DNA of 64,000 bases from Eledone cirrhosa. Lineage: Eukaryota. The notes under the pieces are model-generated. The model was not told the origin of the DNA. It did no database searches and saw only the letters and a list, made by a program, of their open reading frames with translations. Where the stretch lies: the NCBI GenBank assembly GCA_964016885.1, contig OZ024740.1, positions 37,076,001-37,140,000 on the forward strand, in the 5' to 3' direction. This document shows, in pieces, positions 20,419-64,000 of this stretch; position 1 is the first letter of the stretch, and the number at the start of each line of letters is the position of its first letter. The translations under genes and the position numbers were made by a program.

Positions 20419-20451
20419 AGGGTGTTAAAGTTTGCTTGAAGCATTGTGAAA

Positions 20452-25415: not shown

Positions 25416-25538
<123 letters not shown>

Positions 25539-25592
25539 CGTTTCTGAATTTGTTTAGCAAGGTTCTTTATCTGAAAACGTGTGTTGAAACCG

Positions 25593-25784: not shown

Positions 25785-25837
25785 ATATATATATATATAT
25801 AATTTTCTTTTTTTTTTTTTTTATTTTTTTTTTTTAA

Positions 25838-26397: not shown

Positions 26398-26925
26398 ATC
26401 TATACAAACTAAACAATTTGCCACATTCTGAGAAATGGTATGAGCATAAGCCAGAGCCGGTAATAGAAAACGATCAAGTGAAGGTGCTATGGGATTTTAG
26501 GATACAGACGGACAAGAAACTGGAACACAATAGGCCTGACCTGGTGGTTTTTGACAAGGTAAAAAGTTCGTGCCTGATTATGGATGTAGCCTGCCCATTT
26601 CACACGATAGTGCAAGAAAAGGAGAGGGAGAAAATTATCCGATACCACGATTTAAAGTAGGAGTTAAAAAGGATTTGGAACTGACATGAGATCAAGGTCA
26701 TACCGATTGTCATAGGAGCACTAGGTACTATCTCAAAGAGTTTCAAGGATGGTTAAAGAAGATCAGTCCAGCTCCGTTTTTTGGAACACTTCAAAAGGAA
26801 TGCTTCCTGGGAACAGCAAGAACCCTCCAATACGTCCTGAATATCTGAGGCTGCAGGTAGTGGCTTGATATTCATTTCAACAAAATTTCCAGTTAAATAA
26901 CATCAATGACTGAGACTCAAAGAAC
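26398..26925 (+). mobile_element. R4/Dong-like family B, 3' fragment (Dong-B1)
   Basis: RLE region KWYEHKP..LWDFRIQTD..HNRPD..DVACP, homologous to 54355-54890. Joined to mariner through TCACCGGC microhomology; (AAT)17 tail at 26926-26976. Confidence 0.9.
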
Positions 26926-26976
<51 letters not shown>

Positions 26977-26977
<1 letters not shown>

Positions 26978-29900
26978 TTTTCTTTATTAACCACAAGGGT
27001 TTACATAAAGTAGACATTAAGGACAGTACAGGACAATACAGGACGGTACAAATGGGCATTTCTTCTTGTAAAAAAAAAAAAATATATAACAAAATATAAC
27101 AATGAAAAATTCCCCAATAGGGTGGAGACTTCCGAGGGACATTTGTGGAGAAAGCCCATTAAAAGGCCACAGTGACCCTCACCACCAGGGTAAGTGCCCT
27201 CTCCCAGTTTTCCATCTTTAATTTACAGACACATATTCAGAGTAGGCCCATTCACTCGAGCCATACTTGCTTCTCTCACCAATCTTTCAACAAAAGGCTG
27301 GGATTTTCCTTTTCAAATGAAATTTGAAAAGGTTAATCAGGGCATCACCAAAGAGGTAAGTGCTCGTCTTCAGCCCTTTCAAACGTGTCCACCATACAAT
27401 CTCTTTCGCCATGGCCACAAGACAGATAAAAACTGCCTGCCCTTCCCGGTTAAAGGAAGAGGGCGGGGAAATCTTCACGATGGACTCAGCTGATAGCTGG
27501 ATCCGTCCTAAACGTGACAGCAGGTGTTCGACATAAACCCACAAGTCAGCAATGCTCGGACACTGGACGAGTGCGTGCAGGACGGTTTCGCCGCCCTGCG
27601 CGCATCTCAGACATGCCCGGCTGACGGCACCTCTATGCTTGTAGAGTTTATCCTGAACTGGCAAAGCTCCTTGGTAGCACTGCCAGGCCAGGGATTTCTG
27701 GAAGTTGTCCATAGGCCCCGACCCGAAAGTCCTTCAGAAGAGATTGGCTAGTTGATTTTCGTCAACGCCTAGAGTTTCTCCAAGTACATCGTCTCTCTTC
27801 CCCTCCACTAATCTTCTATAGAACGCCAAGCTGGAGTTTCCACCAATCACATTTCCCGATTGGTCATGGGCTGTGAGCGCCTGAAGACATTCCAGTCTCC
27901 AAGCGCTCCCTCTCGGTCTTCGCTTGACCCAGGACTGCAGCTCCGTCAAGGAGACGAGCTCGGGAAAGACGTGTCTAACAAACGGCGACCACACCTGATC
28001 ATCGTCGAGGAAGAGGTGGAGATGTCGTAGCCTGAGCGCGTGTCTGCGCATCATCAGCCACGGCATGCCCAGCCCTCCACGTAGCGGGTGTTGACAGCAG
28101 ATGGACCGCCTGACCATCGGAGCGCGTCCCTTCCACAAAAAGCGAAAGAGCAAACGCTCCAGCGTAGTCAGGCGGGGCTTATGACAAGGTACGACGGTCA
28201 GGCGGTAGTAGATGACGGACGCGATGTACGCATTAGCCACCTCCGCTCGACCTTTCAGGGATAGCTTCCTCTCGGCCCATTTCTGGGTGAGAGAAGCCAC
28301 CCTGCTCGTCACCTCGTCCCAGTTTTTGTCCGTCTGGAGGTCCGGACCGAACCAGACACCAATACGGTGACATCGTCCGCATATGCTGACACGGATCTTC
28401 CGCATCCTAGTTCGCGCGGGACCCGCCTCAACGTCTCCAGTTTGTGCAGTAATGGCTCGAGAATCAATACGTACAAGAGGGACGAGAGGCGACATCTTTG
28501 GCGGACCGGGCGCATGATGTTGAACGGTTCCGAAAGGTGACCGTTCACTCTCACCACAGAGCAGATGACGCTGTGCATGGCAGCGATCCAGCCTCTGAAG
28601 ACGGGCCCAAAGCCAGCCGCCCTCAGGACTGCCGCTAGGTAACGATGGTCGACCCTATCGAAAGCTTTCGACTGATCTAAATTTATCAAGGACCCACCCG
28701 TGCAAAGTTCCCTAGCTACTCTCTCCACGATGTATCGCATGAGGTGGAGGTTGTCGTGGATGGATCTGTCGGGAATGTTGCATATCTGCGCCTCTCCCAC
28801 CAGACCACCAACGATAAGTGCCAACCTCTTTGCTAGCCCTTGGCCAAAATCTTGGACTCTGCGTTCAGCAGAGTTATGGGCCTGAAATTATCTATGTTAT
28901 CCCTCTTGTTAGGATCTTTTCTCAGCACTCCGCCTCAGTGGTCGAGAGCTGCGGCAGTTCGTCGAGGTAGACACTAAAGTCCATCCCTCGATCTGGCCCG
29001 CCGCTGCCCCCGAACAGCTGTGCGAAGTGTCGCAGAAAAGCTACACACATTTGCACGGGATCGAGCAGCATGCGCCCGTCGTGGTCCACCAAAGACCGGA
29101 TCGTGGCTTGTTCCCACGACGTGCCTCCGCCACTCGGGCCCATTGAACGGCTTTCGTCCATTACTAAACCTAATGGACTCTATTCTAATCGCTCTTTTCA
29201 GAGCAAACAACCACTTGTTGTTGACGATGACCCCCGTCAACGCCCGCTTAACTAGTTCGCTAATCCGGTCTCTGTAGGCTTTGCGCCCTGGTAAGAACGC
29301 GTTTAGCTTCCAGTAGCCGGGTCCTCGTCTATGAAGCCTATCTAAGTCAAGCACACAGATCACGAATTTGTGGTCCGTGTAGCTGACTATCTTGAATTGT
29401 GGACAGCCTATGCTAGACCTATCTATTTCCCTACAAAATATACTATCTAGATATGATCTGGATGATCCTATGCGATTTGTCCAAGTCCACATTGGCACAT
29501 TCGGGAAATCCAATCGGTACCTGTCAGACAGTTCAAAACCCCTGAGCAGGTTGGTGAGGCCCTTTCACCCTCCTCCCCTATCCGCTAATCCCACACAGTC
29601 CCAGCGTGCATCTTAGATCCCGTTCCAGTCGCCCACTAACACTAAAGAGCGGGACGTTCCAAGAAACGTCTCCAGATGCCGGAAGAAATCAGGCCGCCCT
29701 GCTCCTGTCGGGGCATAGACGGCCACTAGGCTGAAAGCTTGCCCGTCTCCGCTGGTCACGTCCAGCACCACCAACTTACCCTCTGGGTCCAGGAAGATGG
29801 CCCGTATGGCGAGATCCAAACCTCTCCGAAAAAGCACAGCAACTCCTCCCCCCGATCCAGGACGGCTGGGACATGCGTACACATGGTAGCCTCCGAAGAT

Positions 29901-32048
29901 CGTTGCGAAGGCCCGTGCTTCGGAGATTCTGGTCTCGCTGATATCCACGACATCTATGTTCAGTGACCTGAGGTCGTTGATCAGGTGGCCCTGCTTCCAT
30001 GATGACCCCAAGCCACGCCCATTTATGCTGCCTATTCTGAGTGAGGTCATGTTGAAATGGAGTGGAAAAGATGGGAAAGACTTACTTCTCGTAGAGGAAG
30101 GATGGTTTGTCCATCCTTTTCACCGCTTCTGGCCTCCTCCGGAAGGATGTCCTTATAACTCCTCCTGGAGAGTGCTTGTTGGAAGTCTCCGATATCTTTG
30201 GGGAATTTTTGTTTTAGTGTCGTGTACGTTTTCTGTGTGATGCGAGTGATTTGTATGTGTGGATGTGGTGTGAACTTTTTTGGTGTTGTGTAGTCTTTTT
30301 CTGTGATGCTGGTGTTGTGTTGGATGTAGTGTAATAATTGATTGTTCAAATTTAATGTTGTGTAGTGTGTATCGTTTTGGCTGTTTTGTTTTGTTTGCGT
30401 TTGTTGTGGGTTTGTTTCTGTTACGCTTTTTGGTGACTTTTGTGGTGTTGGTGATGGTGGTGTTGGGGTTAATGATGGTGATGATGTTGGTGTTTGTGGT
30501 GATGTGGTTGGTGATGCTGGTGTGGATGGTAGCAACTTTTTTGTTTGATAGTTTATTTGTTTCCTTCTGTATTTTGTTTTTGGAGGGGGAAGAAAGAGAA
30601 TTTTTCCTTTTTTGGTTTCTTTTGCTTTTTTTTTCTGATACCGTTTTCCACTCGTCGTCACAATCTGTCTCCAGTTGCGATAGGTCGGGGAGTGGAAAAT
30701 CCTCCACAGGCGTTGGTTTTGGGAGTGGCGTGGTGGATGGTGTAGGCGCTGGTGCTAGTTCTGGCGCGTTGGGTGGTGGTGATGTTGGTTTTGCTACTGT
30801 TGCTGGGGTTGTTGCTGTTACAGTTGCTTCTGTTGTTGCTGCTACAGTTGTTGCTGCCATTTCTGCTGCTGGTGGTGTTGATGGTTGAGTCACTGGGGTG
30901 GGTAAGAGAGGTGCCCTCAACCTTTTAGCCTGAGGGAAAAATGCCCTTAGGTGGGTTCCTTCACCACAAACGACACACCTAGGCCTTCTGCCGTCAGTGA
31001 GGTCTATTACCTCTAGGATCTCCTCAATGCTTTTTTGGTTCGCTTGGATCAGGAGCTCCATCCCAGATCCGGACCAGTTCTCCTGCTTTTCTTTCGCTAT
31101 TTCCATTATCTTGGTGTTGGCCTCGATGCCGGCGAGGACGGCAGCCATTAGCCAGGGAATTTCGATGGCCGGTGGAATGTGGATCACCCTGATCTTCACG
31201 AGTCTCTGGCCACAATAGCTTGTGACGAGTGTGAAGTCGTCACTTCTTAATGGGGCCATGGAGTGTTCTCTGGCCTCCTGTGGTGCTTCAAAGAACACGT
31301 CCACGGTTCCATATTTCTGCCCACGTCTGATGTGTGGGTTTTTTTCCCACACATGTCCCAAAGCTTTTTGGATTTAGGACTCGGATGCTCGTTCCACTCG
31401 GCGCGATTTTATGTTAATCGTCCGATAAGACACGGTGCATAGGCGCCGATGCTCCATTTTATTAGATGGGGGAGGGGGTTGACCCTGTACCCATCTTTCT
31501 TTACCATTTGTTGGCTTCTTCTAATTCCTCCTGAGTTACCTGGAATGCTTCGCACTTTTTCGCTACTCTGGCAAAAGACATAGTTTTCTTATTCTCATTG
31601 TTGCTGTTGTTGTTATCGTTACTTTTGCTATTGTTAATTTTAGTTTCAGTTGTGGTGGTGGTGGCGTCAGTGGTGTTCGGTGTGGAAGAGTTCATTTTGG
31701 CTGAATTCGTTTCGATATCACGAGATTATTTATTGTTTTCTTTTGTTTCTGTTGTTGCTGTGGTGGTGGGGGGCGGCTTCAACACCTGCAGTCATTGGTA
31801 ATGGCGGGAAATGAATGTCTGCCTGAGACAAATTTAAAATATTGCTACTGCTTTTTTTTTTGATAATTATAAAAGTTTAAATTTTGGGCTCAAGGCCCCA
31901 ATCTTTTTGAGTGTCCTTTTCGGAAAACAATGTATGTGCACTTATATACAGTTAACAATAAACATTTTCCATAAATGGTAATTTTAAACAAACGAAAACA
32001 ACAAACTTTTGCGGAGCTCACGATGATACGATTTACTACGTACGTCGC
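26977..32048 (-). mobile_element. Tx1-clade LINE family A, copy 1 (both ends present, internally deleted)
   Basis: Homologous to 54969-60833; ORF1/ORF2 fragments with frameshifts and deletions; (AAT)n at both ends. Confidence 0.92.
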
Positions 32049-32404
32049 TAATAATAATAATAATTATAATAATAATAACAATAATAATTTTAATAATAAT
32101 GATTTCTTTATTGGCCACAAGGGCTGACATCAAGAAAAACATCACAGACGGAACAGGACGGTATGATGTGGGTTTTATGCGTGTAAATATTTTTATTATT
32201 TATATAAGAAAAGAAAAAAACATAAAACATATATATATATATAAACAATAAAATGAAAATTGAAACAATGAAAAATTCCCCAATAGGGGGGAAACCTCCG
32301 AGGGTTACTCGTGGCGAAAACCACACAAAAGACCACGGCCACCCTGACTACCAGGGCAAGTGCCCTCTCTCAATTTTTCCATCTCACAAACTACAGACGT
32401 ATAT

Positions 32405-35400
32405 TCAGAGTATGTTCACTCGGACCATTCTCGCTACATTCACCCACCTTTCAACAAACTTGCTAGAAAGCAGCACTTGCCACTCCACCCTGATTTTCCT
32501 CTTCAAGTGAAACTTGAAAAAGTTAATCAGGGATTCGCCGAAGAGGAATGTGTTTGTCTTTAATCCTTTTAACCTTGTCCACCACACAATCACTTTCGCC
32601 ATGGCCACCAGGCAGATTAAAACCGCCTGCCCTTCCTCCTCAAAGGAAGACGGCGAGACCATCTGCACAATGGACTCAGTCGACAACCGGATCAGTCCCA
32701 GAGGCGACAGCAACTGTTCGACATAGTTCCACAAGTCAGCAATGCTCGGGCACTGAACGAGTGCGTGCACAACGGTTTCGTCGCTATGCGCGCATCTCGG
32801 ACAGGCCCGGCTGACGGCACTTCCGTGCCTGTAGAGCTTATCTCGAACCGGCAGCGCTCCCCGGTAGCACTGCCAGGCCAGGGATTTTTGGAAGTTATCC
32901 ATAGGTCCCGGGCTGAAAGTTCTCCGGAAGAGAGCAAGCAGCTGATCTTCTTCGACGCCCAGGATCTCTCCGAGAACGTCGTCGCTCTTCCCCTCCACTA
33001 GTCCTCTATAGAACGCCGAGGTGGACGTTCCACCGATACTGGTGACCAACTGGGAGAGGGCAGTGAGCGTCTGGAGACATTTCAGTTTCCAAGCGCTATC
33101 CCTCGGTCTTTTTCTGACCCAGGACTGCAGCTCCGTCAAGGAGACGAGCTGTGGGAAAATGTGCCTGGCGAACGGCGACCACACCCGTTCACCATCAAGG
33201 AAGCACCAGAGATGTCGCAGCCTCAACGCATGTTTACGCATCATCAGCCATGGCATGCACAGTCCTCCACGCAACGGGTGTTGACATCAGATGGATCGTC
33301 TGACCATGGGAGCGCGTCCCTTCCACAAAAAGCGGAAGAGGGGGCGCTCCATTTTGGTGAGAGTTGGACTGGAGCAAGGGACGACGGTGAGGCAGTAGCA
33401 GATAACGGATGCGATGTACGCATTCGCCACTTCCGCCCGGCCTTTCAGGTACAGCTTCCTCTCAGCCCATTTCCGGGTGAAAGAGGCCACCCTGCTCGTC
33501 ACCTCGTTCCAGTTTTTCTCCATCTGGAGGTCCGATCCGAACCAGACCCCGAGCAATTTAACCGGTCTGTCCGTCCAACGCCCCACAACGCTGTCGGGCG
33601 GCATGGACTTGCCTCTCCAGGTGCCTAGCTGCAAGCCCACCGACTTTTCATGGTTTATCTTTGCTCCTGTCACCGCTTCGTATTCTCTTAGTGTAGTGCC
33701 GATCGCCTCGATGTGTTTGGCGTTCGACACCACTACGTATTCCTTGAGAGCGGTGCCGAGCATCTGGACGTGTCTGGTGCTCGACACCACCACGGTGACG
33801 TCGTCCGCGTAGGCCGACTCGGATTTCCCGCATCCTAGTTCGCGTGGGACGCCCCTCATCGCCCCCAGTTTGTGCAGTAACGGCTCGAGAGCCAATACGT
33901 ACAAGAGGGACGAGAGGAGACAACCCTGGCGGACTGAGCGCACGATGCTGAACGGCTGCGACAGGTGACCGTTCACCCTCACAACTGAGCAGATGTCGCT
34001 GTACATTGCTGCGATCCAACGCCTGAAAACGGGCCCGAAACCGGCTGCCTCGAGGACCGCCGCCAGGTACCGATGGTCGACCCTATCGAATGCTTTGGAT
34101 TGATCCAAGTTGATCAGGGCCCCACCCTTGCCAGGTTCCTTAACCACCCTCTCTATGATGCATCGCATGGGGTGGAGGTTGTGGTGTATGGATCTGTCCG
34201 GGATGGCGCATGTCTGCGCCTCTCCCACCAGACTCTTGACGACAAGCGCCAACCTGTTTGCTAACACCTTGGCCAAAATCTTGAACTCTGCGTTTAGCAG
34301 AGTTATGGGCCTGAAATTATCAATAACATCCCCCTTGTTCGGGTCTTTCTCAGCAGCGCCACTGCTCACCGGCTCACAAAACTGGGAATGCTCCCGTTAT
34401 GCTGCCAGTTGCAGTAGACGTCTGCCAAGAGGTCACCGAACAAGTCTGGCATAAATGCATAAAGCTCGTAGGGCAGACCATCTAAACCTGGCGATTTACC
34501 TCTTGTGCAGTTAGCCATCGCTTCCCGTATTTCACCGGCTGTTATTGGCTTTTCGCAACACTGTGCTGCGGTCGTCGAGAGCCGAAGCAGTCTATCGAGG
34601 TCGAGGTATGCACTGAAGTCCATGTCCCGATCCGGGCCGCCGCAGCTCCCGAACAGTTCAGCAAAGTGCTGCTGAAAAGCTTCACACATCCGCTCGGGTT
34701 CGAGCATCACGCACCCGTTTTGGTCAGACAAAGACCGAATTGTGGCTTTATTGCCACGTCGCGCCTCTGCCACCCGGGCCCATTGGACGGCTTTTGTCCC
34801 CTCGTGTTTCAGAGCACGTGCTCTAGCTCTGAGAACGCAGCCTTCGTGTTTTGCGTTGAAGAATTGGTCGAGTGCCAATCTCGCCGCAAGCACGTCGGTT
34901 GCGATGCCTGTCCTAAACGCCTCTTCTAGCTTTCTGACTAGCTGTCCCTCTACTCTATTTTCCTCTATCACTACTCCATTGCTAAACCTAATCGACTCTA
35001 CTTTAATTGCCCTTTTCAGGGCGAACCACCACCTGTTGTTGACGACCGCTCCCGTCAACGCCCGCTTAACTAATACGCTAATCCGGTCTCTGTAGGCCTT
35101 GCGCGCCGGGAAAGACGCGTTCAGCTTCCAGTAACCAGGCCCTTGTCTATGAAGTCTGTCTATGTCGATCTCATGATCACAAATTTGTGGTCTGTGTAGT
35201 CGACTATTTTAAATTGTGGACAACTTATACTAGCCTTATCTAGTTCCCTGCAGAATACCCTATCTAGATACGATCTGGATGACCCGATGCGGTTTGTCCA
35301 TGTCCACATTGGCACATTCGGGTGATCCAGTCGATACCTGTCAGACAGTTCAAAACGTCTGAACAGGTTGGTGAGGCTCTTGCACCCTCCTCCCCTATCC

Positions 35401-35867
35401 ACTAGCCCCACACGATCCCAGCGTGCATCCAAGATACCGTTCCAGTCGCCCACTAACACTAAAGAGCGGGACGTTCCAAGAAAGGTCTCTAGACGTCTGA
35501 AGAAATCTGGCCGTCCTGCCCCTGTTGGGGCGTAGACGGCTACTAGCCTGAAAGCATTGCCTTCGCTGCCGGTCACGTCCATCACCACCGACTTACCTTC
35601 TGGGTCCAGGAAGATGGCCCGTATCGCGAGATCCAAGCTTCTCCGAAAAAGGACGGCAACCCCTCCCCCCGATCCTGGACGGCTGGGAGATGCGTATACA
35701 TCGTAGCCGCCGAAGATCGGTGCGAAGGCCCGGGCCTCGGAGATTCTGGTTTCACTGATGGCCACCACATCTATGTTTAGTGACCTGAGGTCATTGAGCA
35801 GGTGACCCTGCTTCCAAGATGACCCCAGGCCACGTGCATTTATACTGCCTATTCTGAGTACAGTCAT
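32405..35867 (-). pseudogene. Tx1-B ORF2 (AP endonuclease, RT, C-terminal Cys/His motif), frameshifted
   Basis: GSINARG, ISET, GDWN, TDH; FRPITLLN, KAFDRV, QGC, YADD; CPRC..H..C. Split over 35160-35903, 34366-35058, 33287-34369 and 32405-33274. Confidence 0.9.
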
Positions 35868-35897
35868 GTTGGATGAGAAACGGGGCAAATGAGAATG

Positions 35898-37911: not shown

Positions 37912-38151
37912 GTTGAAATTTTTCAAAAAATATTTTACACAAATACGAATACGACACCCCGTAAAGTGGTGCCTTATTATTTACTAGTGAACCCCTGTAT
38001 TAGGTGGGTCACTTCTTCTAAACTTTTATCAAATTTAAAACTTGAATAAAAGGTTTAGAACGGTTGAAAAAGAAGTAAAACGTTGAAAAAGACTGGAGGC
38101 GATAAGAAGCGTGGCTTCACCAACCAATAATAATAATAATAATAATAATAA

Positions 38152-41100: not shown

Positions 41101-41281
41101 AACTGCCCATATACTAAGGAAGATTCTGTCAATATAAGTACATCACAAGTCTAAACACCTAAAGATGCATGTGTGAATATGTATGTTCTTTCTTGAACAT
41201 GGCGGACCTTGTTGTCTCTTGAGGTCACTGGTTGTGACTTGGTGATAACTCGTATGAACATAAAGCAAGATAAATGCAACT

Positions 41282-41282
<1 letters not shown>
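38152..41282 (+). mobile_element. R4/Dong-like family A, copy 1 (degenerate, internal deletions)
   Basis: [36 protein letters not shown]-terminus QKIVLMGTAHILRKILSI; (AAT)n on both sides. Confidence 0.9.
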
Positions 41283-41313
<31 letters not shown>

Positions 41314-41315
<2 letters not shown>

Positions 41316-47874: not shown

Positions 47875-47923
<49 letters not shown>

Positions 47924-48369: not shown

Positions 48370-48390
48370 TAATAATAATAATAATAATAA

Positions 48391-50436: not shown

Positions 50437-50437
<1 letters not shown>
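48391..50437 (+). mobile_element. Dong-A copy 3, 5'-truncated (RT + RLE)
   Basis: ORF 48486-49628 (QGDSLSPLLF, YMDD) and 49607-50293 (CRVC..H..C, RHD, NRPD..D..K); (AAT)n on both sides. Confidence 0.92.
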
Positions 50438-50468
<31 letters not shown>

Positions 50469-50469
<1 letters not shown>

Positions 50470-53400: not shown

Positions 53401-54890
53401 AAGAGTGAGAAGGAGTTGGATGTGCTTGTTGACACTGTCCGTATTTTCAGCAATGATATATGTATGCAATTCGGTATTAGTAAGTGTGGAGTCCTTGTGA
53501 TGAAGAGAGGTAAATTGAGCAGAAGCAACGGAATCCAGGTACCAACAGGTGAGATGATAAAGGAAATTAACACTGAAGAAGGGTACAAGTATTTGGGTGT
53601 TCTGGAGGCTGATAACTTCAAGAACAAAAATATGAAGGAATTGATAAGATCTGAATACATTCGGAGAGTAAGGAGCGTATTAAAGTCACATCTGAACAGT
53701 AGGAATGCCATAAGTGCAGTAAATTCCCGAGCTGTGTCTATTATTAGGTACAGTGCGGGAATTCTGAGATGGAATGTTGCTGAACAAAAAGAAATGGATA
53801 GGAAGACTAGGAAGCTATTGACTATCTACAACATGTTCCACAAGAGGAGTGATGTCGATAGACTCTACTTAAGGAGATCTGAAGGTGGAAGAGGTCTTAT
53901 CAGCATAGAGGACTGTGTTCAGATGGAGAAAAACAACCTACACAAATACGTGACTGATAGTAAGGAGCCAATGCTCAGAATTGTACTGAAGGAGAGGACA
54001 ATAGACCAGGGGATGTCCAAGGAGGAAATAACAACAAGGAGAAAGAGCAGCCTTCATGAAAAATCCCTTCATATTACCTTCTTTGAGAAAACTGAATTCA
54101 GAGATCCACAGACATGGAACTGGTTGAAAAGAGGAGACCTTAAAAAGGCTACAGAAGGAATGTTAATGGCTGCGCAAGAGCAGGCCCTTAAAACGAAGTG
54201 GGTGAAACACCATATTTACAAGGAGGAGGCTAGCCCACTGTGCAGGATCTGTGGAGAGAGAGAGGAGACTGTGGCTCACATTGTATCCGAGTGTAAACAC
54301 CTAGCCCAGACTCACTATAAGGGCTGGAGACATGATGTGATGGGCAGGGTGATTCACTGGCACCTATGCAAAGTAAACAATTTACCACATTCTGAGAAGT
54401 GGTATGAGCATAAGCCAGAGTCGGTGATAGAAAACGATCAGGTGAAGGTGCTGTGGGAATTTAGGATACAGACGGACAAGAAACTGGAACACAATAGACC
54501 TGACCTGGTGGTTTTGGACAAGGAAAAAAGACCGTGCCTGATTGTGGATGTGGCCTGCCCATTCGACACGAAAGTGCAAGAGAAGGAGAGGGAGAAAATT
54601 AACCGATACCAGGACTTAAAGTGGGAGGTAAAAAGGATTTGGAACTGCCATGAAGTCAAAGTGGTCCCGATTGTCATAGGCGCACTAGGTACTATCGCAA
54701 AATGTTTCCAGGGATGGTTAAAGAAAATTGGCCCCGCCACGCTTTTTGGAACGCTTCAAAAGGCATGCTTGCTGGGAACAGCAAGAACCCTCCGATACGT
54801 CCTGAATATCTGAGGCTGCAGGTAGTGGCTTGATATTCATTTCAACAAACTTTCCAGTTAACTAACATCAATGACTGAGACTCAAAGAAC
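50469..54890 (+). mobile_element. R4/Dong-like family B, copy 2, apparently full length
   Basis: ~0.9 kb 5' UTR homologous to 61370-62390; single long ORF with two lesions; (AAT)26 tail at 54891-54968. Confidence 0.92.
51394..54813 (+). pseudogene. Dong-B2 ORF: Myb-like N-terminus, RT, CCHC finger, restriction-like endonuclease
   Basis: NWTKELN..YRKRMHNIW; [27 protein letters not shown]; CRIC..H..C, RHD, RPD..DVACP..K. Stops at 51825 and 52968 are absent from copy B3. Confidence 0.92.
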
Positions 54891-54969
<79 letters not shown>

Positions 54970-55211
54970 TTTTCTTTATTAACCACAAGGGTTCACATAA
55001 AGTAGACATTAAGGACAGTACAGGACAATACAGGACGGTACAAATGGGCATTTCTGCGTGTAAAAAAACAGAGGTTGAAATAAAATAACAAAGAAAAATT
55101 CCCCAATAGGGGGGAGACTTCCAAGGGACATTTGTGGAGAAAGCCCATTAAAAGACCACAGTGGCCCTGACCACCAGGGCAAGTGCCCTCTCCCAGTTTT
55201 CCACCTTTAAT

Positions 55212-58200
55212 TTACAGACACATACTCAGAGAAGGCCCATTCATTCGGGCCATACTTGCTTCTCTCACCCATCTTTCAACAAAATGCTGGGAAGAGAGCA
55301 CTTCCCTCTCTACCCTGATTTTCCTTTTCAAATGAAATTTGAAAAAGTTAATCAGGGCATCACCGAAGAGGTAAGTGATCGTCTTCAGCCCTTTCAAACG
55401 TGTCCACCATACTATCTCTTTCGCCCTGGCCACCAGACAGATAAAAACTGCCTGCCCTTCCAGGCTAAAGGAAGGGGGCGGGGCAATCCTCACGATGGAC
55501 TCAGCTGATAGCTGGATAGGTCCTACACGTGACAGCAGGTGTTCGACATAAACCCACAAGTCAGCAATGCTCGGACACTGGACGAGTGCGTGCAGGACGG
55601 TTTCGTCGCCCTGCGCGCATCTCGGACATGCCCGGCTGACGGCACCTCCATGCCTGTAGAGTTTATCCCGAACTGGCAAAGCTCCTCGGTAGCACTGCCA
55701 GGCCAGGGATTTCTGGAAGTTGTCCATAGGCCCCGGCCCGAAAGTCCTTCCGAAGAGATTGGCTAGTTGATTTTCGTCGACGCCTAGAGTTTCTCCAAGT
55801 ACGTCGTCGCTCTTCCCCTCCACTAATCCCCTATAGAACGCCAAGGTGGTGTTTCCACCGATCACATTGCCCGATTGGTCGAGGGCTGTGAGCGCCTGAA
55901 GACATTCCAGTCTCCAAGCGCTCCCTCTCGGTCTTCGCTTGACCCAGGACTGCAGCTCCGTCAAGGAGACGAGCTGGGGAAAAACGTGTCTTGCAAACGG
56001 CGACCACACCAGATCACCGTCGAGGAAGAGGTGGAGATGTCGTAGCCTGAGCGCGTGTCTGCGCATCATCAGCCACGGCATGCCCAGCCCTCCACGTAGC
56101 GGGTGTTGACAGCAGATGGACCGCCTGACCATCGGAGCGCGTCCCTTCCACAAGAAGCGAAAGAGCAAACGCTCCAGCGCAGTCAGGCGGGGCTTAGGAC
56201 AAGGTACGACGGTCAGGCGGTAGTAGATGACGGATGCGATGTACGCATTCGCCACCTCCGCTCGACCTTTCAGGGATAGCTTCCTCTCGGCCCATTTCTG
56301 GGTGAGAGAAGCCACCCTGCTCGTCACCTCGTCCCAGTTTTTGTCCGTCTGGAGGTCTGGACCGAACCAGACCCCTAGCAATTTAACCGGTCCGTCCGTC
56401 CAGCGCCCGACGACGCTGTTGGACGGCATGGACCTGCCTCTCCAGGTACCGAGCTGCAGGCCCACTGACTTTTCCTGGTTGATCATTGCTCCTGTCACCG
56501 CTTCGTATTCTCTTAGTGTAGTGCCGATCGCCTCGATGTGTTTGGCGCTCGACACCACTACGGTGACATCGTCGGCATATGCTGACACGGATCTTCCGCA
56601 TCCTAGTTCGCGCGGGACCCCCCTCAACGTCTCCAGTTTGTGCAGTAATGGCTCGAGAGTCAATACGTACAATAGGGACGAGAGGGGACATCCTTGGCGG
56701 ACCGAGCGCATGATGTTGAACGGTTCCGAAAGGTGACCGTTCACTCTCACTACAGAGCAGATGTCGCTGTGCATGGCAGCGATCCAGCCTCTGAAGACGG
56801 GCCCAAAGCCAGCCGCCTTCAGGACTGCCGCTAGGTAACGATGGTCGACCCTATCGAAGGCTTTCGACTGATCTAAATTGATCAAAGACCCACCCGTGCC
56901 AGGTTCCTTAGCTACCCTCTCTACGATGTATCGCATGAGGTGGAGGTTGTCGTGGATGGATCTGTCGGGAATGGCGCATGTCTGTGCCTCTCCCACCAGA
57001 CCACCAACGACAAGCGCCAACCTCTTTGCTAGCACCTTGGCCAAAATCTTGAACTCTGTGTTTAGCAGAGTTATGGGCCGGAAATTTTCTATGTTATCCC
57101 CCTTGTTCGGATCCTTTCTCAGCAGCGCCACCGCTCCTCGGCTCACAGAGCTGGGAATTCTCCCGTTCTGTTGCCAGTTGCAGTAGACGTCCGCCAAGAG
57201 GCCTCCGAACAAGTTTGGCATTTGTACGTAAAGTTCATAGGGCAGACCATCCAAACCAGGCGATTTGCCCCTTGTGCAACTAGTCATTGCATCCCGTACT
57301 TCAGCGGTTGTTATCGGCTTTTCGCAACACTCCGCCTCAGTGGCCGAAAGCCACGGCAGTCCGTCGAGGTAGACACTAAAGTCCATCCCTCGATCCGGCC
57401 CGCCACTGCCCCCGAACAGTTGAGCGAAGTGTCGCTGAAAAGCTTCACACATTTGCCCGGGATCGAGTAGCATGCGCCCGTCGTGGTCCACCAAAGACCG
57501 GATCGTGGCTTTGTTGCCATGACGCGCCTCCGCCACTCGGGCCCATTGAACGGCTTTCGTCCCCTCGTGTCTGAGAGCACGCACCCTAGCTCTGACAACG
57601 CAGCCTTCGTGCTTTGCATTGAAGAATTGGTCAAGGGCCAATTTCGCCGCAAGTACGTCGGTCGCGATGCCTTTGCTAAGCGCCTCATCTAATTTTCTAA
57701 CTAATTCTCCCTCTGCTCTATTTTTCTCTATTGCTAAAGTCTTACTAAACCTAATGGACTCTATTCTAATTGCTCTTTTCAGAGCAAACCACCACTTGTT
57801 GTTGACGATGGCCCCCGTCAACGCCCACTTAACTAGTTCGCTAATCCGGTCTCTGTAGGCCTTGCGCGCTGGTAAGGACGCGTTTAGCTTCCAGTAGCCG
57901 GGTCCTCGTCTATGAAGCCTATCTAAGTCAAGCACACAGATCACGAATTTGTGGTCCGTGTAGCTGACTATCTTGAATTGTGGACAGCCTATGCTAGACC
58001 TATCTATTTCCCTACAAAATACTCTATCTAGATATGATCTGGATGACCCTATGCGATTTGTCCAAGTCCACATTGGTACATTCGGGAAATCCATTCGGTA
58101 CCTGTCAGACAGTTCAAAACGTCTGAGCAGGTTGGTGAGACTCTTGCACCCTCCTTCCCTATCCACTAATCCCACACAATCCCAGCGTGCATCTAAGATC

Positions 58201-58631
58201 CCGTTCCAGTCGCCCACTAACACTAAAGAGCGGGACGTTCCAAGAAAGGTCTCCAGACGCCGGAAGAAATCAGGCCGCCCTGCTCCTGTCGGGGCATAGA
58301 CGGCCACTAACCTGAAAGCTTGCCCGTCTCCGCTCGTCACGTCCAGCACCACCAACTTACCTTCTGGGTCCAGGAAGATGGCCCGTATGGCAAGATCCAA
58401 ACCTCTCCGAAAAAGCACAGCAACTCCTCCCCCCGATCCCGGACGGCTGGGAGATGCGTACACATCGTAGCCGCCGAAGATCGGTGCGAAAGCCTGTGCT
58501 TCGGAGATTCTGGTCTCGCTGATGGCCACTACATCTATGTTTAGTGACCTGAGGTCGTTGAGCAGGTGGCCCTGCTTCCATGACGACCCCAAGCCACGCG
58601 CATTTATGCTGCCTATTCTGAGTGAGGTCAT
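55212..58631 (-). CDS. Tx1-A ORF2p, 1139 aa: AP endonuclease + reverse transcriptase + C-terminal zinc motif
   Basis: Uninterrupted ORF; GSINARG, ISET, YAP, GDWN, LDR, TDH, GYWKLN, KSPGLDG, FRPITLLN, QGCPLS, YADD, CPRC..ETVLH..C. Confidence 0.95.
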   Translation of the reverse strand: MTSLRIGSINARGLGSSWKQGHLLNDLRSLNIDVVAISETRISEAQAFAPIFGGYDVYASPSRPGSGGGVAVLFRRGLDLAIRAIFLDPEGKLVVLDVTSGDGQAFRLVAVYAPTGAGRPDFFRRLETFLGTSRSLVLVGDWNGILDARWDCVGLVDREGGCKSLTNLLRRFELSDRYRMDFPNVPMWTWTNRIGSSRSYLDRVFCREIDRSSIGCPQFKIVSYTDHKFVICVLDLDRLHRRGPGYWKLNASLPARKAYRDRISELVKWALTGAIVNNKWWFALKRAIRIESIRFSKTLAIEKNRAEGELVRKLDEALSKGIATDVLAAKLALDQFFNAKHEGCVVRARVRALRHEGTKAVQWARVAEARHGNKATIRSLVDHDGRMLLDPGQMCEAFQRHFAQLFGGSGGPDRGMDFSVYLDGLPWLSATEAECCEKPITTAEVRDAMTSCTRGKSPGLDGLPYELYVQMPNLFGGLLADVYCNWQQNGRIPSSVSRGAVALLRKDPNKGDNIENFRPITLLNTEFKILAKVLAKRLALVVGGLVGEAQTCAIPDRSIHDNLHLMRYIVERVAKEPGTGGSLINLDQSKAFDRVDHRYLAAVLKAAGFGPVFRGWIAAMHSDICSVVRVNGHLSEPFNIMRSVRQGCPLSSLLYVLTLEPLLHKLETLRGVPRELGCGRSVSAYADDVTVVVSSAKHIEAIGTTLREYEAVTGAMINQEKSVGLQLGTWRGRSMPSNSVVGRWTDGPVKLLGVWFGPDLQTDKNWDEVTSRVASLTQKWAERKLSLKGRAEVANAYIASVIYYRLTVVPCPKPRLTALERLLFRFLWKGRAPMVRRSICCQHPLRGGLGMPWLMMRRHALRLRHLHLFLDGDLVWSPFARHVFPQLVSLTELQSWVKRRPRGSAWRLECLQALTALDQSGNVIGGNTTLAFYRGLVEGKSDDVLGETLGVDENQLANLFGRTFGPGPMDNFQKSLAWQCYRGALPVRDKLYRHGGAVSRACPRCAQGDETVLHALVQCPSIADLWVYVEHLLSRVGPIQLSAESIVRIAPPPSFSLEGQAVFICLVARAKEIVWWTRLKGLKTITYLFGDALINFFKFHLKRKIRVEREVLSSQHFVERWVREASMARMNGPSLSMCL

Positions 58632-58665
58632 GTTGAAAAGGAGTGGAAAAGATGGGAAAGACCAC

Positions 58666-60624
58666 TTACCTTACTTCTCGTAGGGGAAGGACGGCTTTTC
58701 CATCCTTTTCACTGCTTGTGGCCTCCTCAGGAAGGATGTCCTTATAAATCCTCCTGGAGAGTGCTTGTCGGAAGTCTCCGATGTCTTTGGGGAATTTTTG
58801 TTTTAGTGTCATGTACGTTTTCTGTGTGATGCGAGTGATTTGTATGTGTGGAGGTGGTGTGAATTTTGGGGTTGTTGTGTAGTCTTTTTCTGTGATGCTG
58901 GTGTTGTGTTGGATGTAGTGTAATAATTGCTTGTTGTTCAAATTTAATGCTGTGTAGTGTGTATCGTTTTGGTTGTTTTGTTTTGTTTGCGTTTGTTGTG
59001 GGTTTGTTTCTGTTTCGAATTTTGGTGACTTTTGTGGTGTAGGTGATGGTGGTGCTGGGGATAATGATGGTGATGGTGTTGGTGTTTGGGTTGATGGGGT
59101 TGGTGATGCTGGTGTGGATGGTGGCATATCTGTCCTAACTTTTTTGTTTCTTAGTTTATTTGTTTCCCTCTGTATTTTGTTTTTGGAGGGGGAAGGAAGA
59201 GAATTTTTTCTTTTTTGGTTTCTTTTTTTTTTTCCGGATATCGTTTCCCACTCCTCGTCGTCACAATCTGTCTCCAGTTGTGATAGGCCGGGGAGTGGAA
59301 AATCCTCCACAGCCGTTAGCCTTGGTTGTGGTGTGGTTGATGGTGTAGGCGCTGGTGCTAGTTCTGAAGCGTTGGGTGGTGGTGGTGTTGGTTTTGCTGG
59401 TGGTGGTAGTGGTGTTGGTTTTGCTACTGTTGCTGGGGTTGTTGCTGTTATAGTTGCTTCTGTTGTTGCTGCTACAGTTGTTGCTGCCATCTCTGCTACT
59501 GGTGGTGTTGATTGTTTTGTCACTGGGGTGGGTAGGAGAGGTGGCCTCAACCTTTTAGCCTGAGGGCAGAAAGCCCTTAGGTGAGTTCCTTCACCACAAA
59601 CGACACACCTAGGTCTTCTGCCCTCGACAATTACCGTGAGGTGGCTGCCGTCAGTGAGGTCTATTACCTCTGGGATCTCCTCAATGCTTTTTTGGTCCGC
59701 TTGGATCAGGAGCTCCATCCCAGATCCGGACCAGTTTTCCTGTTTTCTTTTGCTACTGCTATTATTTTCGTGTTGGCTTCGATGCCGGTGAGGACAGCCG
59801 CTATTAGCCAGGGAATTTCGATGGCCGGTGGAACGTGGGTCACCCTGATCTTTACGAGTCTCTGGCCACAATAGCTTGGGACGAGTGTGAGGTCGTCACT
59901 TTTTAATGGAGCCATGGAGTGTTCTCTAGCCTCCTCTGGTGTTTCAAAGAACACATCCACGGTTCCATACTTTTGCCCACGTCTGATGTGGGTTTTTCTT
60001 GCCCACACATGTCCCAAAGCTTTTTGGATTTGGGACTTGGATGCCCGTTCCACTCGGCGCGATTTTACATTTATTGTTCTATACGACACGGTGCACAGGC
60101 GCCGATGCTCCATTTTATTAGGTGGGGGGGGTGAGGCTGACCCTGTACCCATCTTTCTTTACCATTTGTTTGGCATTTTCTAAATCTTCTTGGGTTACCG
60201 TGAACGCTTCGAATTGTTTTGCTACGATGGCGAAACTGAGGGTCGGTTTTATAATGTCATTGTTGTTGTTGTTGCTATCGTTAATATTAATTTTATTTTC
60301 AGTTGTGGTGGTTGTGACGTCAGTCGTCTTTGGTGGGGAAGAGTCCATTTTGCTTGATTTCATTTCGACGTCACGAGTTAATTTATTTTTTTCTTCTTTT
60401 GTTTCTGTTGTCGCGGTGGTGGTGGTGGTGGAGGGTTTAACACCTGCAGTCATTGGTAATGGCGGGAAATGAATGTCTGCCTGAGACAAATTTAAAATAT
60501 TGCTACTGCTTATATTTTTTTTTGTGTTGGCAAACGTAGTAACATTTACAATGGTGGTGTCGGTGTGAGGTGTTATTTTGTGAGGAAGGCTTTCAGCTGC
60601 TTCGTGCAGAGGGGAATTAGCCAT
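58666..60624 (-). pseudogene. Tx1-A ORF1p (CCHC zinc knuckle, Pro/Thr-rich linker), two homopolymer frameshifts
   Basis: Pieces 60118-60624, 59706-60152 and 58666-59871; CVVCGEGTHLRAFC; breaks at G8 (60124-60131) and T runs near 59743-59751. Confidence 0.85.
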
Positions 60625-60852
60625 TTTTTTTCAAAGAAATTTTTGGATAATAATAAAAGTTAAAATTTTGGGCACAAGGCCCCAATCTTTTTGGGTGTCC
60701 TTTTCGGAAAACAATGTATGTGTGCTTATAAACAGTTTACAATAAAATTTTCCATAAATGGCAATTTTTAAACAAACGGAAATAACAAACCTTTGCGGAG
60801 CTCACGATAATACGATTTCCTACGTAGGTCGCCAATAATAATAATAATAATA

Positions 60853-60877
<25 letters not shown>

Positions 60878-60883
<6 letters not shown>

Positions 60884-61050
60884 GGGTCAACGCCAGGATG
60901 GGGCCCGTACAGAAAACAATGTTCATTGGAAGTACCAGGATACTGAAAAAAGTGCTTGACAATTGAAAGTGCCACCTCAGTTTACAGGTTGTAGACAGCT
61001 GGCACTAGAATTACATCACCAACAATAAATGCTGTGCGACAAGCGGATAG
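60878..61050 (+). mobile_element. R4/Dong-like family C, extreme 3' fragment
   Basis: VQKTMFIGSTRILKKVLDN* matches the Dong C-terminus; 3' hairpin; degenerate (AAT)n tail. Confidence 0.7.
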
Positions 61051-61066
61051 TAATAATAATGATAAC

Positions 61067-61259
61067 GATTTCTACTATAGGCACAAGGCCAGCAATTTGG
61101 AGGAAGGGGAAAGTCGATTAAATCGACTCCAGTGCATTACTGGTACTTTAATTTATCGACATCGTAAGGATGAAAGGCAAAGCTAACCTCGGCGAGATTT
61201 GAACTCAAAACGTAAAGGGTCATCCGATGCTCTACTGATTCTGCCAACCCACTGCCCTG
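61067..61259 (-). mobile_element. SINE inserted within (AAT)n
   Basis: B box, Meta-like core, tail CCTTGTGCCTATAGTAGAAATC; AAT repeats on both flanks. Confidence 0.88.

Positions 61260-61341
<82 letters not shown>
61260..61341. repeat. (AAT)n tract
   Basis: Direct reading; one of 11 such junction tracts. Confidence 0.97.
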
Positions 61342-64000
61342 GGGAAGAAGACGCACGAGGTGACGGAGGTCATGAAATCGCTCCCGTAAGTTTTGAATTT
61401 TTAACATATTTAAATCATTTGTGAAATAACAACTCTTAGTACAAATGCTACGTAAAGCACCCGGCTTGAGCCCCAAAAAATTCGGACCCAAAATATATTG
61501 TTATAAGGCTCAAATATTCAAATATTCAACTTTGTATTGTACACTGTATATCCAAAAAAGAAAATGGCTATAAATGGAAGAAGAAGAACCCCCCCCTCCT
61601 CTCCTCTGGCTACACTATATAGGACAGCTAAACTCACCAACACCAGAAACTAGATACACCACCCACCCCATCATCTGTGTACACTAAACACAACAGCCAG
61701 ATAACGACATTTTCACCTTCACCGCCACCGCTCACTACGGCCGTCATTACCACCACTATCCCATCACCGCCGCCACCACCCCTTGACTCCTTCACTGCTG
61801 CCACCGCTACAGCACCATCACTACAGTAATACGGTCGCATCACCGCCACCACTGCCTCGGTATCGACATCACCACCACCACTGTCTCAGTATCGCTACCG
61901 CCGCCAGTCTCCCACTTCTCCCTGCTGGCTGCTACTTCCACATTATAGAATTCCTACTACTAACAAAGAGGAAGGCATCAAAATATATAGATAGACTCAA
62001 AAGAAAAAAGAAAAAACAAACAACAAAACCAAAGCAGCACAGCAACAACAGCAAAAACGAGAAAAACAAACAGAGAAAAACAAAAACAAAAAAAGAAACC
62101 CCCAAAACGTAAAGAAAATAAGAATGAAGAGAGAAGCAGGCGGACGGACAGAGAAGAGGGGGGAAAAAGTAAAACTTAAAAAACAAAAACTAAGTCAGAC
62201 ATTCGAATACTACATTACAATGAAACTTATGCTTATTCATTTTCGGGGCCCTTTCTGCCCGTGTGTTTGTTTGTTTATGTGTGTTCGTATACAGCGTGGT
62301 GATAATGCCACACAAGGGCCAAGTGGGATGGCGGATCCACAGATGGCTATGTAAACATACATTCGCCAATCCTCGATAAGAGTGTTTAAATATCGAACAT
62401 AAACAGTTCGAATAACGGTGAAATGGAGACTAGAACGTCATGTGACAGACTCTCACCCAACAGGTGCCCCCTGGCTCAGCAGCAGGAACCTGACTGTCAA
62501 CCAAATACTGCTGATGTTGGAGGAAGAAGAAAAAGGAAAGGGGCCAGAACCAACTGGACGAAAGAATTGAATAGAACTGTTATGCAATGCTACCTGAAAA
62601 GTAACCCCAAGGAGAGGGGCTACAGGAGACGGATGCATAACATCTGGAACGAGATTGGTTTATTTAAATTAGATGAACAAAAATTGGCCGGGCAGGCTTG
62701 GGTAATAAGAACTAATGGGTGGATAAGCGAGCTGGAACTGGAGGAACTGAGCAGAGAGAATGGCTTGGAGATGGCGGGTGTAGTATGCCAGACAAGCGAG
62801 CCGGTGGGAAATGAAGGTGAGGAGGTCCTGAGAACGGAGGAACCACCCGAAGCAGACAATGATCTGAATACTGAGATAAATAATACCTGGAACAGAGATA
62901 CGGCCACTGAGGAGATGAATGCTGACGGGCTAGGACAAGATTCGGTTGACATCCTAAATTTAGTGGTAGATGAATTGAACAATGATAGTGGGAGACCTAT
63001 GAACCTAAGATTTGTAGACAGGAAAAAGTTAAAAGAAACAACAGCTAAGGTAAACAAAGTCATCCCATACCTTGAGGCGAGGAGCCTTCACCAGTGCAAC
63101 AATATCCTCAAAGCAACAGCAAATACGGTGAGGAAACTACTTGGTATAAAAGCGAGAGGAAACAACAGACAAGAAAGAGCAGAGCCGTGGTGGAAGAAGC
63201 GACTGAGTGGGCAAATCGGGGAAATGAGAAATGACATAGGAAAGCTTGAGTCACTACTGAATGGGACACTAAAAAACATAGGCACTAAAAATAGACTGGA
63301 AATAAAATACAAAACTAGGAGTAAAAAGCTAAATATTATCATAGAGGAATTGAAGCAACGCATTGTAGCAAAGAGTGCCAAAATCAGGCGATACGAGAAC
63401 AGAGTCAGTCAGTATAAACAGAACCGCATGTTCGACAACAACCAGAAGATGCTGTTTGGACAGCTTGAGGGGAAAGAAAGAGGCAACGACTTGATCCCTG
63501 GGGCGGAACAAACTAAAACATTCTGGAGAGGAATATGGGAGCAGGATGTTAGACACAATGCCCAGGCAGGGTGGATTGAGACAGTACAGAGGGAGATCGG
63601 TGAGCAGGCACAACAACAGACTGATTTGAGTATCACAGTTGAAACTCTTAAGGGGCAAGCCAAAATACTAACCAACTGGAAATCACCAGGCCCAGATGGT
63701 GTGCAGAGGTATTGGCTTAAACATTTAACATCCCTCCACCCGAAGCTGACGGCCATGTTCAATGACTGCTTGGTGTCGGGTGAGGTGCCAGAGTGGTTGA
63801 CAAAAGGTACCACAGTTCTGATAATGAAAGACCGAATCAAGGGTAATGATGTTACCAACTATAGACCTATCACATGTCTGCCCGTAATGTGGAAACTGTT
63901 GACGAGCATTGTGTCTGAGGAAATCTACCATCACCTCCACACAAACAACTTGTTACCGGACGAACAGAAAGGATGCCGAAAGAAGTCACGTGGTACAAAG
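61342..64000 (+). mobile_element. Dong-B copy 3 (runs off the window)
   Basis: 5' UTR and ORF homologous to 50469-53000. Confidence 0.92.
62423..64000 (+). CDS. Dong-B3 ORF, open to the window edge (partial)
   Basis: ATG 62423 [45 protein letters not shown]; 526 codons with frame preserved; lacks both lesions of B2. True start uncertain. Confidence 0.8.
   Translation, partial: METRTSCDRLSPNRCPLAQQQEPDCQPNTADVGGRRKRKGARTNWTKELNRTVMQCYLKSNPKERGYRRRMHNIWNEIGLFKLDEQKLAGQAWVIRTNGWISELELEELSRENGLEMAGVVCQTSEPVGNEGEEVLRTEEPPEADNDLNTEINNTWNRDTATEEMNADGLGQDSVDILNLVVDELNNDSGRPMNLRFVDRKKLKETTAKVNKVIPYLEARSLHQCNNILKATANTVRKLLGIKARGNNRQERAEPWWKKRLSGQIGEMRNDIGKLESLLNGTLKNIGTKNRLEIKYKTRSKKLNIIIEELKQRIVAKSAKIRRYENRVSQYKQNRMFDNNQKMLFGQLEGKERGNDLIPGAEQTKTFWRGIWEQDVRHNAQAGWIETVQREIGEQAQQQTDLSITVETLKGQAKILTNWKSPGPDGVQRYWLKHLTSLHPKLTAMFNDCLVSGEVPEWLTKGTTVLIMKDRIKGNDVTNYRPITCLPVMWKLLTSIVSEEIYHHLHTNNLLPDEQKGCRKKSRGTK

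Follow-up and report, generated by a model that had tools for sequence, protein, structure and literature searches.

Results

Layout of the chain

The window analysed in this study is a stretch of 64,000 nucleotides (nt) of the 3.0-Gb genome of Eledone cirrhosa (contig OZ024740.1, here C1, positions 37,076,001-37,140,000); coordinates above 64 kb refer to downstream stretches in continued window numbering. Positions 26390-64000 are occupied by an almost gap-free chain of non-long-terminal-repeat retrotransposons of two kinds, Dong/R4-like elements with a restriction-like endonuclease (RLE) on the plus strand and Tx1-like elements with an apurinic/apyrimidinic endonuclease (APE) on the minus strand, joined to one another by (AAT)n tracts. 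Our analysis makes it very probable that the two classes use (AAT)n in fixed opposite directions, likely by nicking opposite strands, and that such chains likely grow as insertions double the tracts. Element order and strands were determined from self-matches in BLAST and from a library of labelled natural copies, with open reading frames (ORFs) and Pfam domains in support. The RLE pieces of the library were taken from the window, which makes the RLE coverage partly a matter of construction, and these pieces also match copies elsewhere. The order, strands and junction coordinates given by an earlier note on this DNA were reproduced by self-BLAST, by the element table and by the ORFs and domains. 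The features are listed below (RT, reverse transcriptase; UTR, untranslated region; SINE, short interspersed element).

25850-26390 (start approximate), plus: Mariner transposase fragment at the left chain boundary (Pfam HTH_48, E 9.5e-13), with about 9 bp of microhomology to DongB and without an AAT tract
26390-26925, plus: DongB, 5'-truncated (RLE end and 3' UTR), 90% identical to a DongB copy and supported by translation
26926-26976, plus: (AAT)17 between DongB 3' and Tx1A 3' ends
26977-32048, minus: Tx1A, both ends present, four internal deletions (self-BLAST, element table)
32049-32100, plus: imperfect (AAT)n between Tx1A 5' and Tx1B 3' ends
32101-38125, minus: Tx1B, full length, frameshifted, with APE, RT, zf-RVT and an ORF1 zinc knuckle (Pfam); RT about 77% identical to Tx1A
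38126-38149, plus: (AAT)8 between Tx1B 5' and DongA 5' ends
38150-41282, plus: DongA, 5' UTR truncated, internally deleted; about 42% protein identity to DongB
41283-41313, plus: (AAT)10 between DongA 3' and Tx1A 3' ends
41314-47874, minus: Tx1A-type element with both ends, internally duplicated at 42917-43389 (self-BLAST, element table)
45794-45961, minus: SINE within the Tx1A body, outside any tract, with a flanking duplication of about 13-15 bp; overlooked in the earlier note
47875-47922, plus: (AAT)16 between a Tx1A 5' end and 5'-truncated DongA
47923-48369, plus: DongA, 5'-truncated, about 450 bp (element table)
48370-48390, plus: (AAT)6-7
48391-50437, plus: DongA, 5'-truncated, with RT, CCHC and RLE (Pfam, translation)
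50438-50469, plus: (AAT)10
50470-54890, plus: DongB, near full length, with stops and a short 5' duplication
54891-54968, plus: (AAT)26 between DongB 3' and Tx1A 3' ends
54969-60833, minus: Tx1A, full length; ORF2 open over 1152 codons (55212-58670, APE-RT-zf); 3' hairpin AACC-CTTGT-GGTT
60834-60854, plus: (AAT)7 at the Tx1A 5' end
60855-61261, minus (Tx1 orientation): likely a single orphan 3' transduction, comprising poly(A) (T24 on plus), 'DongC' at 60878-61048, a degenerate tract and a SINE at 61062-61259 (by its C21 copy)
61260-61340, plus: (AAT)26-27
61341-64000, plus: DongB, full length, continuing to 65889 beyond the window; ORF open over 1141 codons (62390-65812)

Together, Tx1, Dong and SINE sequences cover 98.6% of 26398-64000, bearing out the earlier statement that there is essentially no host DNA between the elements. 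In 20 evenly spaced 10-kb stretches of the genome, one of which struck a chain, the averages were 4.9% for Tx1, 1.1% for Dong and 1.8% for the SINE, or about 8% in total. The chain extends beyond the window to about 65.96 kb, and further downstream element coverage is 80% at 64-82 kb, 0% at 82-92.7 kb and 97% at 92.7-141.65 kb, with polarity unchanged. All ten tracts of at least four perfect units in the window, which sum to 131 units, read AAT on the plus strand; none reads ATT and none lies left of 26398, while the tract at about 61049 is degenerate. From 26.4 to 141.65 kb there are 29 AAT tracts and no ATT tract.

Target and polarity across the genome

Since a tract at the 3' end of an element could be its tail, the 5' ends are the informative ones. 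A 14-mer from the Tx1A 5' end has 2,550 matches in the genome (control 1), none of which stands before an (ATT)n run (control 0-1). The first 100 listed all enter AAT repeats, and 2,514 of the 2,550 continue with AA. The other 36 comprise 14 not followed by A and 22 followed by A and then a non-A; all of these were listed, and 34 still enter (AAT)n, two are tractless and none enters (ATT)n. Tx1B 5' ends number 232, and the first 100 listed are all followed by AAT runs as judged by eye. About 20 of these 100 have one to three AAC units between element and tract, which are possibly inherited 5' tract units.

For DongB, 1,585 5' ends were found genome-wide (control 2). Among 30 full-length DongB loci, 29 have at least four AAT units within 130 nt upstream, and the remaining one is GAA/GAT-degenerate. 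In about 7 of 100 listed DongB 5' ends, as at about 94785-94940 (L034), the AAT tract is separated from the Dong 5' end by a (GAA)n run, and these runs probably arose by slippage on the element's own GAAGAAG start. Across the fetched loci, 483 element ends abut tracts in the polarity of the window and three are flipped (L189, L061 with a 5' inversion, and a weak 60-bp hit), a tally in which the SINE and 3'-end counts are partly tautological. Polarity changes within a single tract on contig C4 (about 163.40 Mb, L111), where (AAT)n gives way to (ATT)n; a DongA 3' end borders this tract at one side, and at the opposite side stands the 5' end of a Tx1A that is flipped along with it. The claim of the earlier note that the two classes share one (AAT)n target in fixed opposite orientation is thus upheld by the Tx1A 5' ends, the DongB loci and the tally of ends: when flanks and orientation are tabulated genome-wide, copies lie neither in random flanks nor in both orientations as a rule.

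In a rival explanation only Dong targets the tract; Tx1-like elements would use any nick in AT-rich DNA, append an (ATT)n tail and build up passively where the DNA is neutral. The minority of Tx1A 3' ends outside long AAT tracts (about 10 of 100) would suit it, and so would the broad insertion of the SINE, which likely uses the same proteins. However, the 5' ends, which bear no tail, abut in-phase (AAT)n in nearly all 2,550 Tx1A copies and in the 100 Tx1B copies listed, and solitary full-length Tx1A copies are flanked by tracts on both sides (L164, L165, L169, L172). This explanation is already largely refuted by the 5' flanks, and we regard it as scarcely tenable. Of 20 young Tx1A-type copies, drawn from 40 matches mostly for a non-element 3' flank, 17 are full length when traced to the 5' end.

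The tracts themselves point to the same association. Tracts of at least ten units ending in a non-A have 16,037 matches in the genome; of the first 30 on C1, 22 touch a Tx1 or Dong end and 27 do so when SINEs are counted (by eye). Such tracts are clustered, 35 of 99 gaps being 15 kb or shorter against 4% expected. Neighbouring tracts lie on the same strand in 27 of 35 pairs at up to 15 kb, compared with 26 of 50 pairs at more than 100 kb.

Element architecture and class

The minus-strand elements have two ORFs, of which ORF2 carries APE, RT and zf-RVT by Pfam and finds its best PDB match in L1 ORF2p (E 4e-51). An ORF1 with a gag-like CCHC knuckle is a feature of the Tx1 clade. We found zf-CCHC in ORF1 of two Tx1B copies (E 0.0086 and 0.0015, under the gathering score), and in Tx1A ORF1 a CCHC motif is visible in the translation, without a Pfam hit. 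The APE-RT-zf ORF2 of the L1 group and the sequence-specific insertion are likewise as in the Tx1 clade. In the plus-strand elements a single ORF encodes RT, CCHC and a PD..D..K endonuclease. The 1141-codon DongB ORF gives a profile match to R2 that includes the RLE stretch (i-E 0.00097), R2 structures best match its predicted structure (E 3e-35), and Exo_endo_phos (APE) has no Pfam hit in it. A single APE-less ORF with RT and a C-terminal CCHC and PD-(D/E)xK endonuclease agrees with Dong/R4, as do the TAA repeats, with TAA on the sense strand at both ends; the flanks are (AAT)n and not the 28S rDNA into which the R2 clade inserts. The two classes are about 26% identical over a short RT stretch, compared with about 42% between DongA and DongB and about 77% between Tx1A and Tx1B.

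The names Dong and Tx1 are assignments by architecture and target, not by tree. No named Dong or R4 sequence was present among the 120 homologues listed or in the clusters examined, nor was a named Tx1 reference present among homologues and clusters, and ESM Atlas and cluster look-ups yielded no clade name. Among named homologues of the APE protein, one from Argonauta hians matches best (73%). Eighty metagenome loci found as relatives are mostly 24-32% identical, two of them 41-43%, and one of the 80 has an (AAT/ATT)4 run. A 5' ribozyme of the hepatitis delta virus (HDV) type, reported for Bombyx mori Dong (PMC3774820) and for R4, gave no family in an Rfam scan of 60400-62000 and no match to a descriptor used without a positive control.

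Several further observations concern these elements. The first ~390 nt of full-length DongA form a 5' module shared with DongB, about 77% identical to the DongB 5' end (94931-95314, L034; also in other chains), although the proteins share only about 42%. One DongB copy (L061, C2 about 38.94 Mb) has an inverted 5' segment beside the tract, resembling the twin-priming inversions of L1. Further Tx1 subfamilies were also seen, and at least one further repeat family outside the library abuts tracts repeatedly, with six similar termini (L012, L142-L145, L162, L164).

Recurrence and probable growth of the chains

Chains of 28.5 kb (C1 about 26.00-26.03 Mb) and 25 kb (C1 about 2.79-2.815 Mb) are present in two more regions, which were selected by their density of tracts. 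Since similar chains of 25-50 kb occur elsewhere, the present locus is a long example of a common structure. The 5'-truncated Dong copies that join tracts directly number 47, and their breakpoints are almost all different, as expected for separate insertion events; the growth by serial insertion proposed in the earlier note agrees with this diversity. Microhomology at these joins averages 1.32 nt against 0.88 nt (p=0.002 against a rough null).

Alternatively, chains could arise mainly when a few insertions are multiplied by unequal crossing-over or segmental duplication, and not by serial retrotransposition. A 2-kb unit with an identical junction does occur twice downstream (109493-111506 and 128641-130670, 97.7% identical), and internal deletions and duplications are frequent. 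Local duplication therefore contributes, and not every junction represents its own insertion. As the main process, however, duplication is very unlikely: self-matches of at least 90% spanning a tract number only four in 117 kb, three of which are the generic DongB 3'/Tx1A 3' join (91-95%), and neighbouring elements are unlike in family, truncation point and divergence.

An assembly artefact that falsely linked separate insertions, whether through identical (AAT)n tracts or through copies that are 97% identical, would preserve polarity if the joins were made in tracts. It would also suit the young copies, which are 97-99% alike, the one duplicated junction of the region and a contiguity taken from the assembly. 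On the other hand, the tracts are only 20-80 bp long, and there is no N in the window or in the next 100 kb downstream. The joined copies come from several families and are 82-97% alike with nearly all breakpoints different, and chains are found on several contigs. We consider such an artefact extremely unlikely, and the polarity of ends and tracts would hold even if chain length were inflated.

We also observed three joins (L177, L182/L023, L015) at which a 5'-truncated Tx1 and a 5'-truncated DongB meet head to head without a tract and overlap by 1-2 nt, compared with no internal tail-to-tail join. As a lead from cases that are too few, these may reflect deletion or joint priming of one break by Tx1 and Dong RNA.

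Tails and tract length

The earlier note held that each insertion splits the tract and adds its own tail, each class thereby making targets for itself and the other; on this view, targets would come mainly from long tails added by the elements. Part of this claim stands. In one DongB subfamily, the 3' tract starts with AAT-AAC-AAT-AAC in 1,931 of about 4,586 copies, and since at least four units are inherited, the short tail is templated. Correspondingly, AAC lies within units 1-4 at 83 of 100 listed DongB 3' ends but at none of 100 Tx1A 5' ends (by eye). The 131 units in the ten tracts of the window, which exceed the likely number of one founder, are also in its favour.

The remainder fares less well. 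Tx1A-type 3' ends number 10,626, and 10 of 100 listed have no more than two AAT units (by eye), with endings on a single unit among them, so a long tail is not obligatory. Tracts with more 3' ends facing them are no longer than the rest: with 30 loci that had been selected for length left out, tracts between two 3' ends average 13.7 units (n=31) and those between two 5' ends 13.2 (n=38; p=0.31), and the four classes of tract by facing ends show no difference (Kruskal-Wallis p=0.76). Tracts between a Dong 3' end and host DNA are even shorter (9.3 units, n=31) than those between host DNA and a Dong 5' end (16.3, n=24). On the present data tail addition is a minor component at best, and long tails are unlikely to be the main source of targets.

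The block at 60855-61261

The poly-T run, 'DongC' and SINE of this block had been taken for a DongC insertion on the plus strand and a separate SINE insertion on the minus strand. That interpretation is not supported. The block is a near-exact copy of one other locus, on contig C21. The 'DongC' piece gave 95 candidates, 40 of which were scored; one other match is 100% identical and the other 38 are 75-85%. The 100% match (C21 about 4,400,150-4,400,560) runs through the SINE into the tract with two mismatches in about 395 nt. On C21 an RLE copy contains the T-run as T10, and past the tract there is a full-length Tx1; the 'DongC' piece is the 3' end of an old RLE copy, antisense to the Tx1 orientation. 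Read on the minus strand, the block consists of Tx1 3' flank and an A-run lengthened to 24, placed at AAT in the Tx1 phase, which makes transduction likely. We therefore read it as a likely orphan 3' transduction by Tx1 from C21, with its 5' end closed within the (ATT)n tract. Two of four other sites with AAT5 plus T15 have an RLE 3' UTR piece cut at a natural T-run with a Tx1 3' end beyond; the remaining two are ambiguous. The block may instead have originated by gene conversion or a small duplication. Read-through by RNA polymerase III from the SINE was considered and rejected, since a T6 run precedes the A-run on that strand. Elsewhere on C21 (about 4.411-4.416 Mb, L362), long repetitive open frames rich in Gly, Cys and Asp were seen on the minus strand.

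The SINE

The element which we take to be a SINE, following the earlier note and by its presumed likeness to octopus SINEs, has 40,719 genome matches. Most of the listed 5' flanks are not AAT tracts, and one copy lies inside Tx1A at 45794, so that the SINE does not belong among the AAT-specific members of the chain, where it had been placed. Its termini have the CTTGT loop and GAAA end of Tx1A and Tx1B, with compensatory stems AACC/GGTT, AGCC/GGCC and TGGC/GCCA (88 Tx1 and 70 SINE termini), which suggests that the SINE may be mobilised by Tx1 proteins through the common 3' hairpin. A second hairpin, GGC-CTTGT-GCC, like those of the SINE and Tx1 3' ends, lies in the Tx1A 5' UTR (about 60668-60685, minus strand). 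At C1:10.32-10.42 Mb there is a long array whose unit contains the SINE 5' end motif, with match spacings near multiples of 45 bp, suggesting a SINE-derived satellite.

Other features of the window

Left of the chain, palindromic elements of 190-510 bp resembling miniature inverted-repeat transposable elements lie at 1698-1978, 15425-15714, 20451-20951 and 25593-25784, several of them beside (TA)n runs. An RT fragment of another long interspersed element (18295-19200, minus; Pfam RVT_1) is presumably RTE-like. An ORF at 22070-23269 (minus) has no Pfam hit and similar ORFs occur downstream at 82.5-86.8 kb; we take it to resemble the endonuclease end of Penelope.

Discussion

In this genome an RLE class and an APE class share the (AAT)n target in opposite polarity. 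Their chains recur genome-wide with many independent truncation points, and one Dong subfamily inherits at least four tract units. In target-primed reverse transcription (TPRT) the nicked strand primes cDNA synthesis on the 3' end of the RNA, so the orientation of an element follows from the strand that is nicked. By this geometry, and by analogy with TRAS1 and SART1, the Dong RLE would nick the ATT strand and the Tx1 APE the AAT strand, and a Tx1 primer ending in ...AAT-3' would fit the invariant junction phase. With a tract on both sides after insertion, the number of targets rises by one per event. Target duplication, slippage and a small number of templated units may then restore the half-tracts to about 13 units, long tails not being the main source. 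Tx1 read-through transcripts would occasionally take downstream chain pieces and tracts to new sites by 3' transduction, and Tx1 proteins may mobilise the abundant SINE through the hairpin. The precise Tx1A 5' junctions would fit an RNA that starts inside the upstream tract; for R2, RNA with upstream 28S sequence has been argued to account for precise 5' junctions (PMC3774820).

Several points weigh against this interpretation. An ATT run directly adjoins the DongB 5' end at L189, one of the 29 DongB loci counted as concordant, and the genome-wide search for wrong polarity at DongB used one phase only and missed this locus. Specificity is not absolute, since about 10 of 100 Tx1A 3' ends are found in host DNA or in related repeats (AAG, AGT, AAC, GAT). 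At the left edge the Mariner fragment is joined directly to DongB with no tract, and downstream one 2-kb junction unit is duplicated. The contiguity of the chain is that of the assembly sequence; for 24000-28500, 40-48% of words were found in 3 of 23 public runs listed, none of them listed as long reads. For the hairpin, covariation is seen in four common stems, which derive from about three lineages (shuffle p~0.08). Finally, which strand each enzyme cuts and how many repeat units an insertion gains are matters of inference.

We further speculate that an undescribed (ATT)n-specific Tx1 lineage converged on the target of Dong from the other strand, and that both classes build most of the long (AAT)n tracts here. 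Every insertion would double the target, Dong and perhaps Tx1 would copy units from their RNA ends, Tx1 read-through would spread chain pieces, and the same proteins would spread the 40,000-copy SINE, whose short ATT tails would seed chains. We hold this joint reading tentatively, as a possible account that falls somewhat short of probable. If true, it would account for part of the hotspots of active transposable elements (TEs) reported in octopus genomes. Dong-R4 and L1-Tx1 have been annotated as active in Octopus vulgaris, Dong-R4 recently, and the hotspots are left unexplained (PMC13282606); the terms 'target site', 'insertion preference' and 'AAT' do not occur in the main text of that paper.

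Target-specific retrotransposons usually compete for a fixed set of sites, while here one target that multiplies with use apparently serves two unrelated endonucleases. The system thus allows facilitation between TE families to be counted in a concrete case, and it offers a mechanism by which TE hotspots could form locally in a large animal genome. With its thousands of young, mostly full-length and tail-marked copies, the templating of tails, the joining of 5' ends and 3' transduction can all be measured from sequence. In such genomes (AAT)n markers are often insertion junctions.

Dong in TAA repeats, Tx1 in other microsatellites and the sharing of a repeat from opposite strands by TRAS and SART are already known; their combination, which we did not find in the literature searched, is apparently new. 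Neither an ATT-specific Tx1 nor chains of Dong mixed with Tx1 turned up in a search that did not reach Kojima and Fujiwara 2004, Repbase Reports or Fig. 3 and the supplements of PMC4494074. Insertion of Dong in TAA repeats has been reported for B. mori Dong, DongAg and DongBg, a mollusc included (PMC3812793). The elements described here resemble these in their single ORF with RT and C-terminal CCHC/RLE and in the TAA-repeat insertion (PMC3812793), but differ in that the target is shared with an APE element of opposite direction in mixed chains of 25-50 kb, and, compared with B. mori Dong as described in PMC3774820, in that the HDV-like ribozyme was not found within the limits of the scan given above. 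Microsatellite-specific Tx1 families include Kibi in (TC)n, Koshi in (TTC)n, crocodilian families in (TTCC)n/(TTTC)n and the telomeric Tx1-1_ACar (PMC4494074, PMC10088271). The minus-strand elements share with them two ORFs, of which ORF2 has APE-RT-zf, flanking microsatellite at either end and, putatively, a SINE partner, theirs being SINEU with Tx1-Mar (PMC4494074, PMC10088271), and are unlike those listed in having (ATT)n on the element strand as target, PMC4494074 being compared by its main text, without the target labels of Fig. 3 or the supplements. In the (TTAGG)n telomeres of B. mori, TRAS1 and SART1 insert in opposite directions, nick opposite strands and form arrays, and about three repeats suffice for SART1 (PMC7265360, PMC10088271). 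Like TRAS1 and SART1, the present elements are two families in one repeat with opposite directions that form arrays, and they would likewise nick opposite strands. That pair consists of APE elements of one clade, confined to telomeres; here the partners are an RLE and an APE element, which meet at thousands of sites in an interstitial microsatellite. R1 and R2 are also an APE and an RLE element in one multicopy locus, the 28S rDNA, and in this respect the present system resembles them. However, R1 and R2 occupy separate unique sites in the same orientation, and their insertion consumes the site instead of leaving two.

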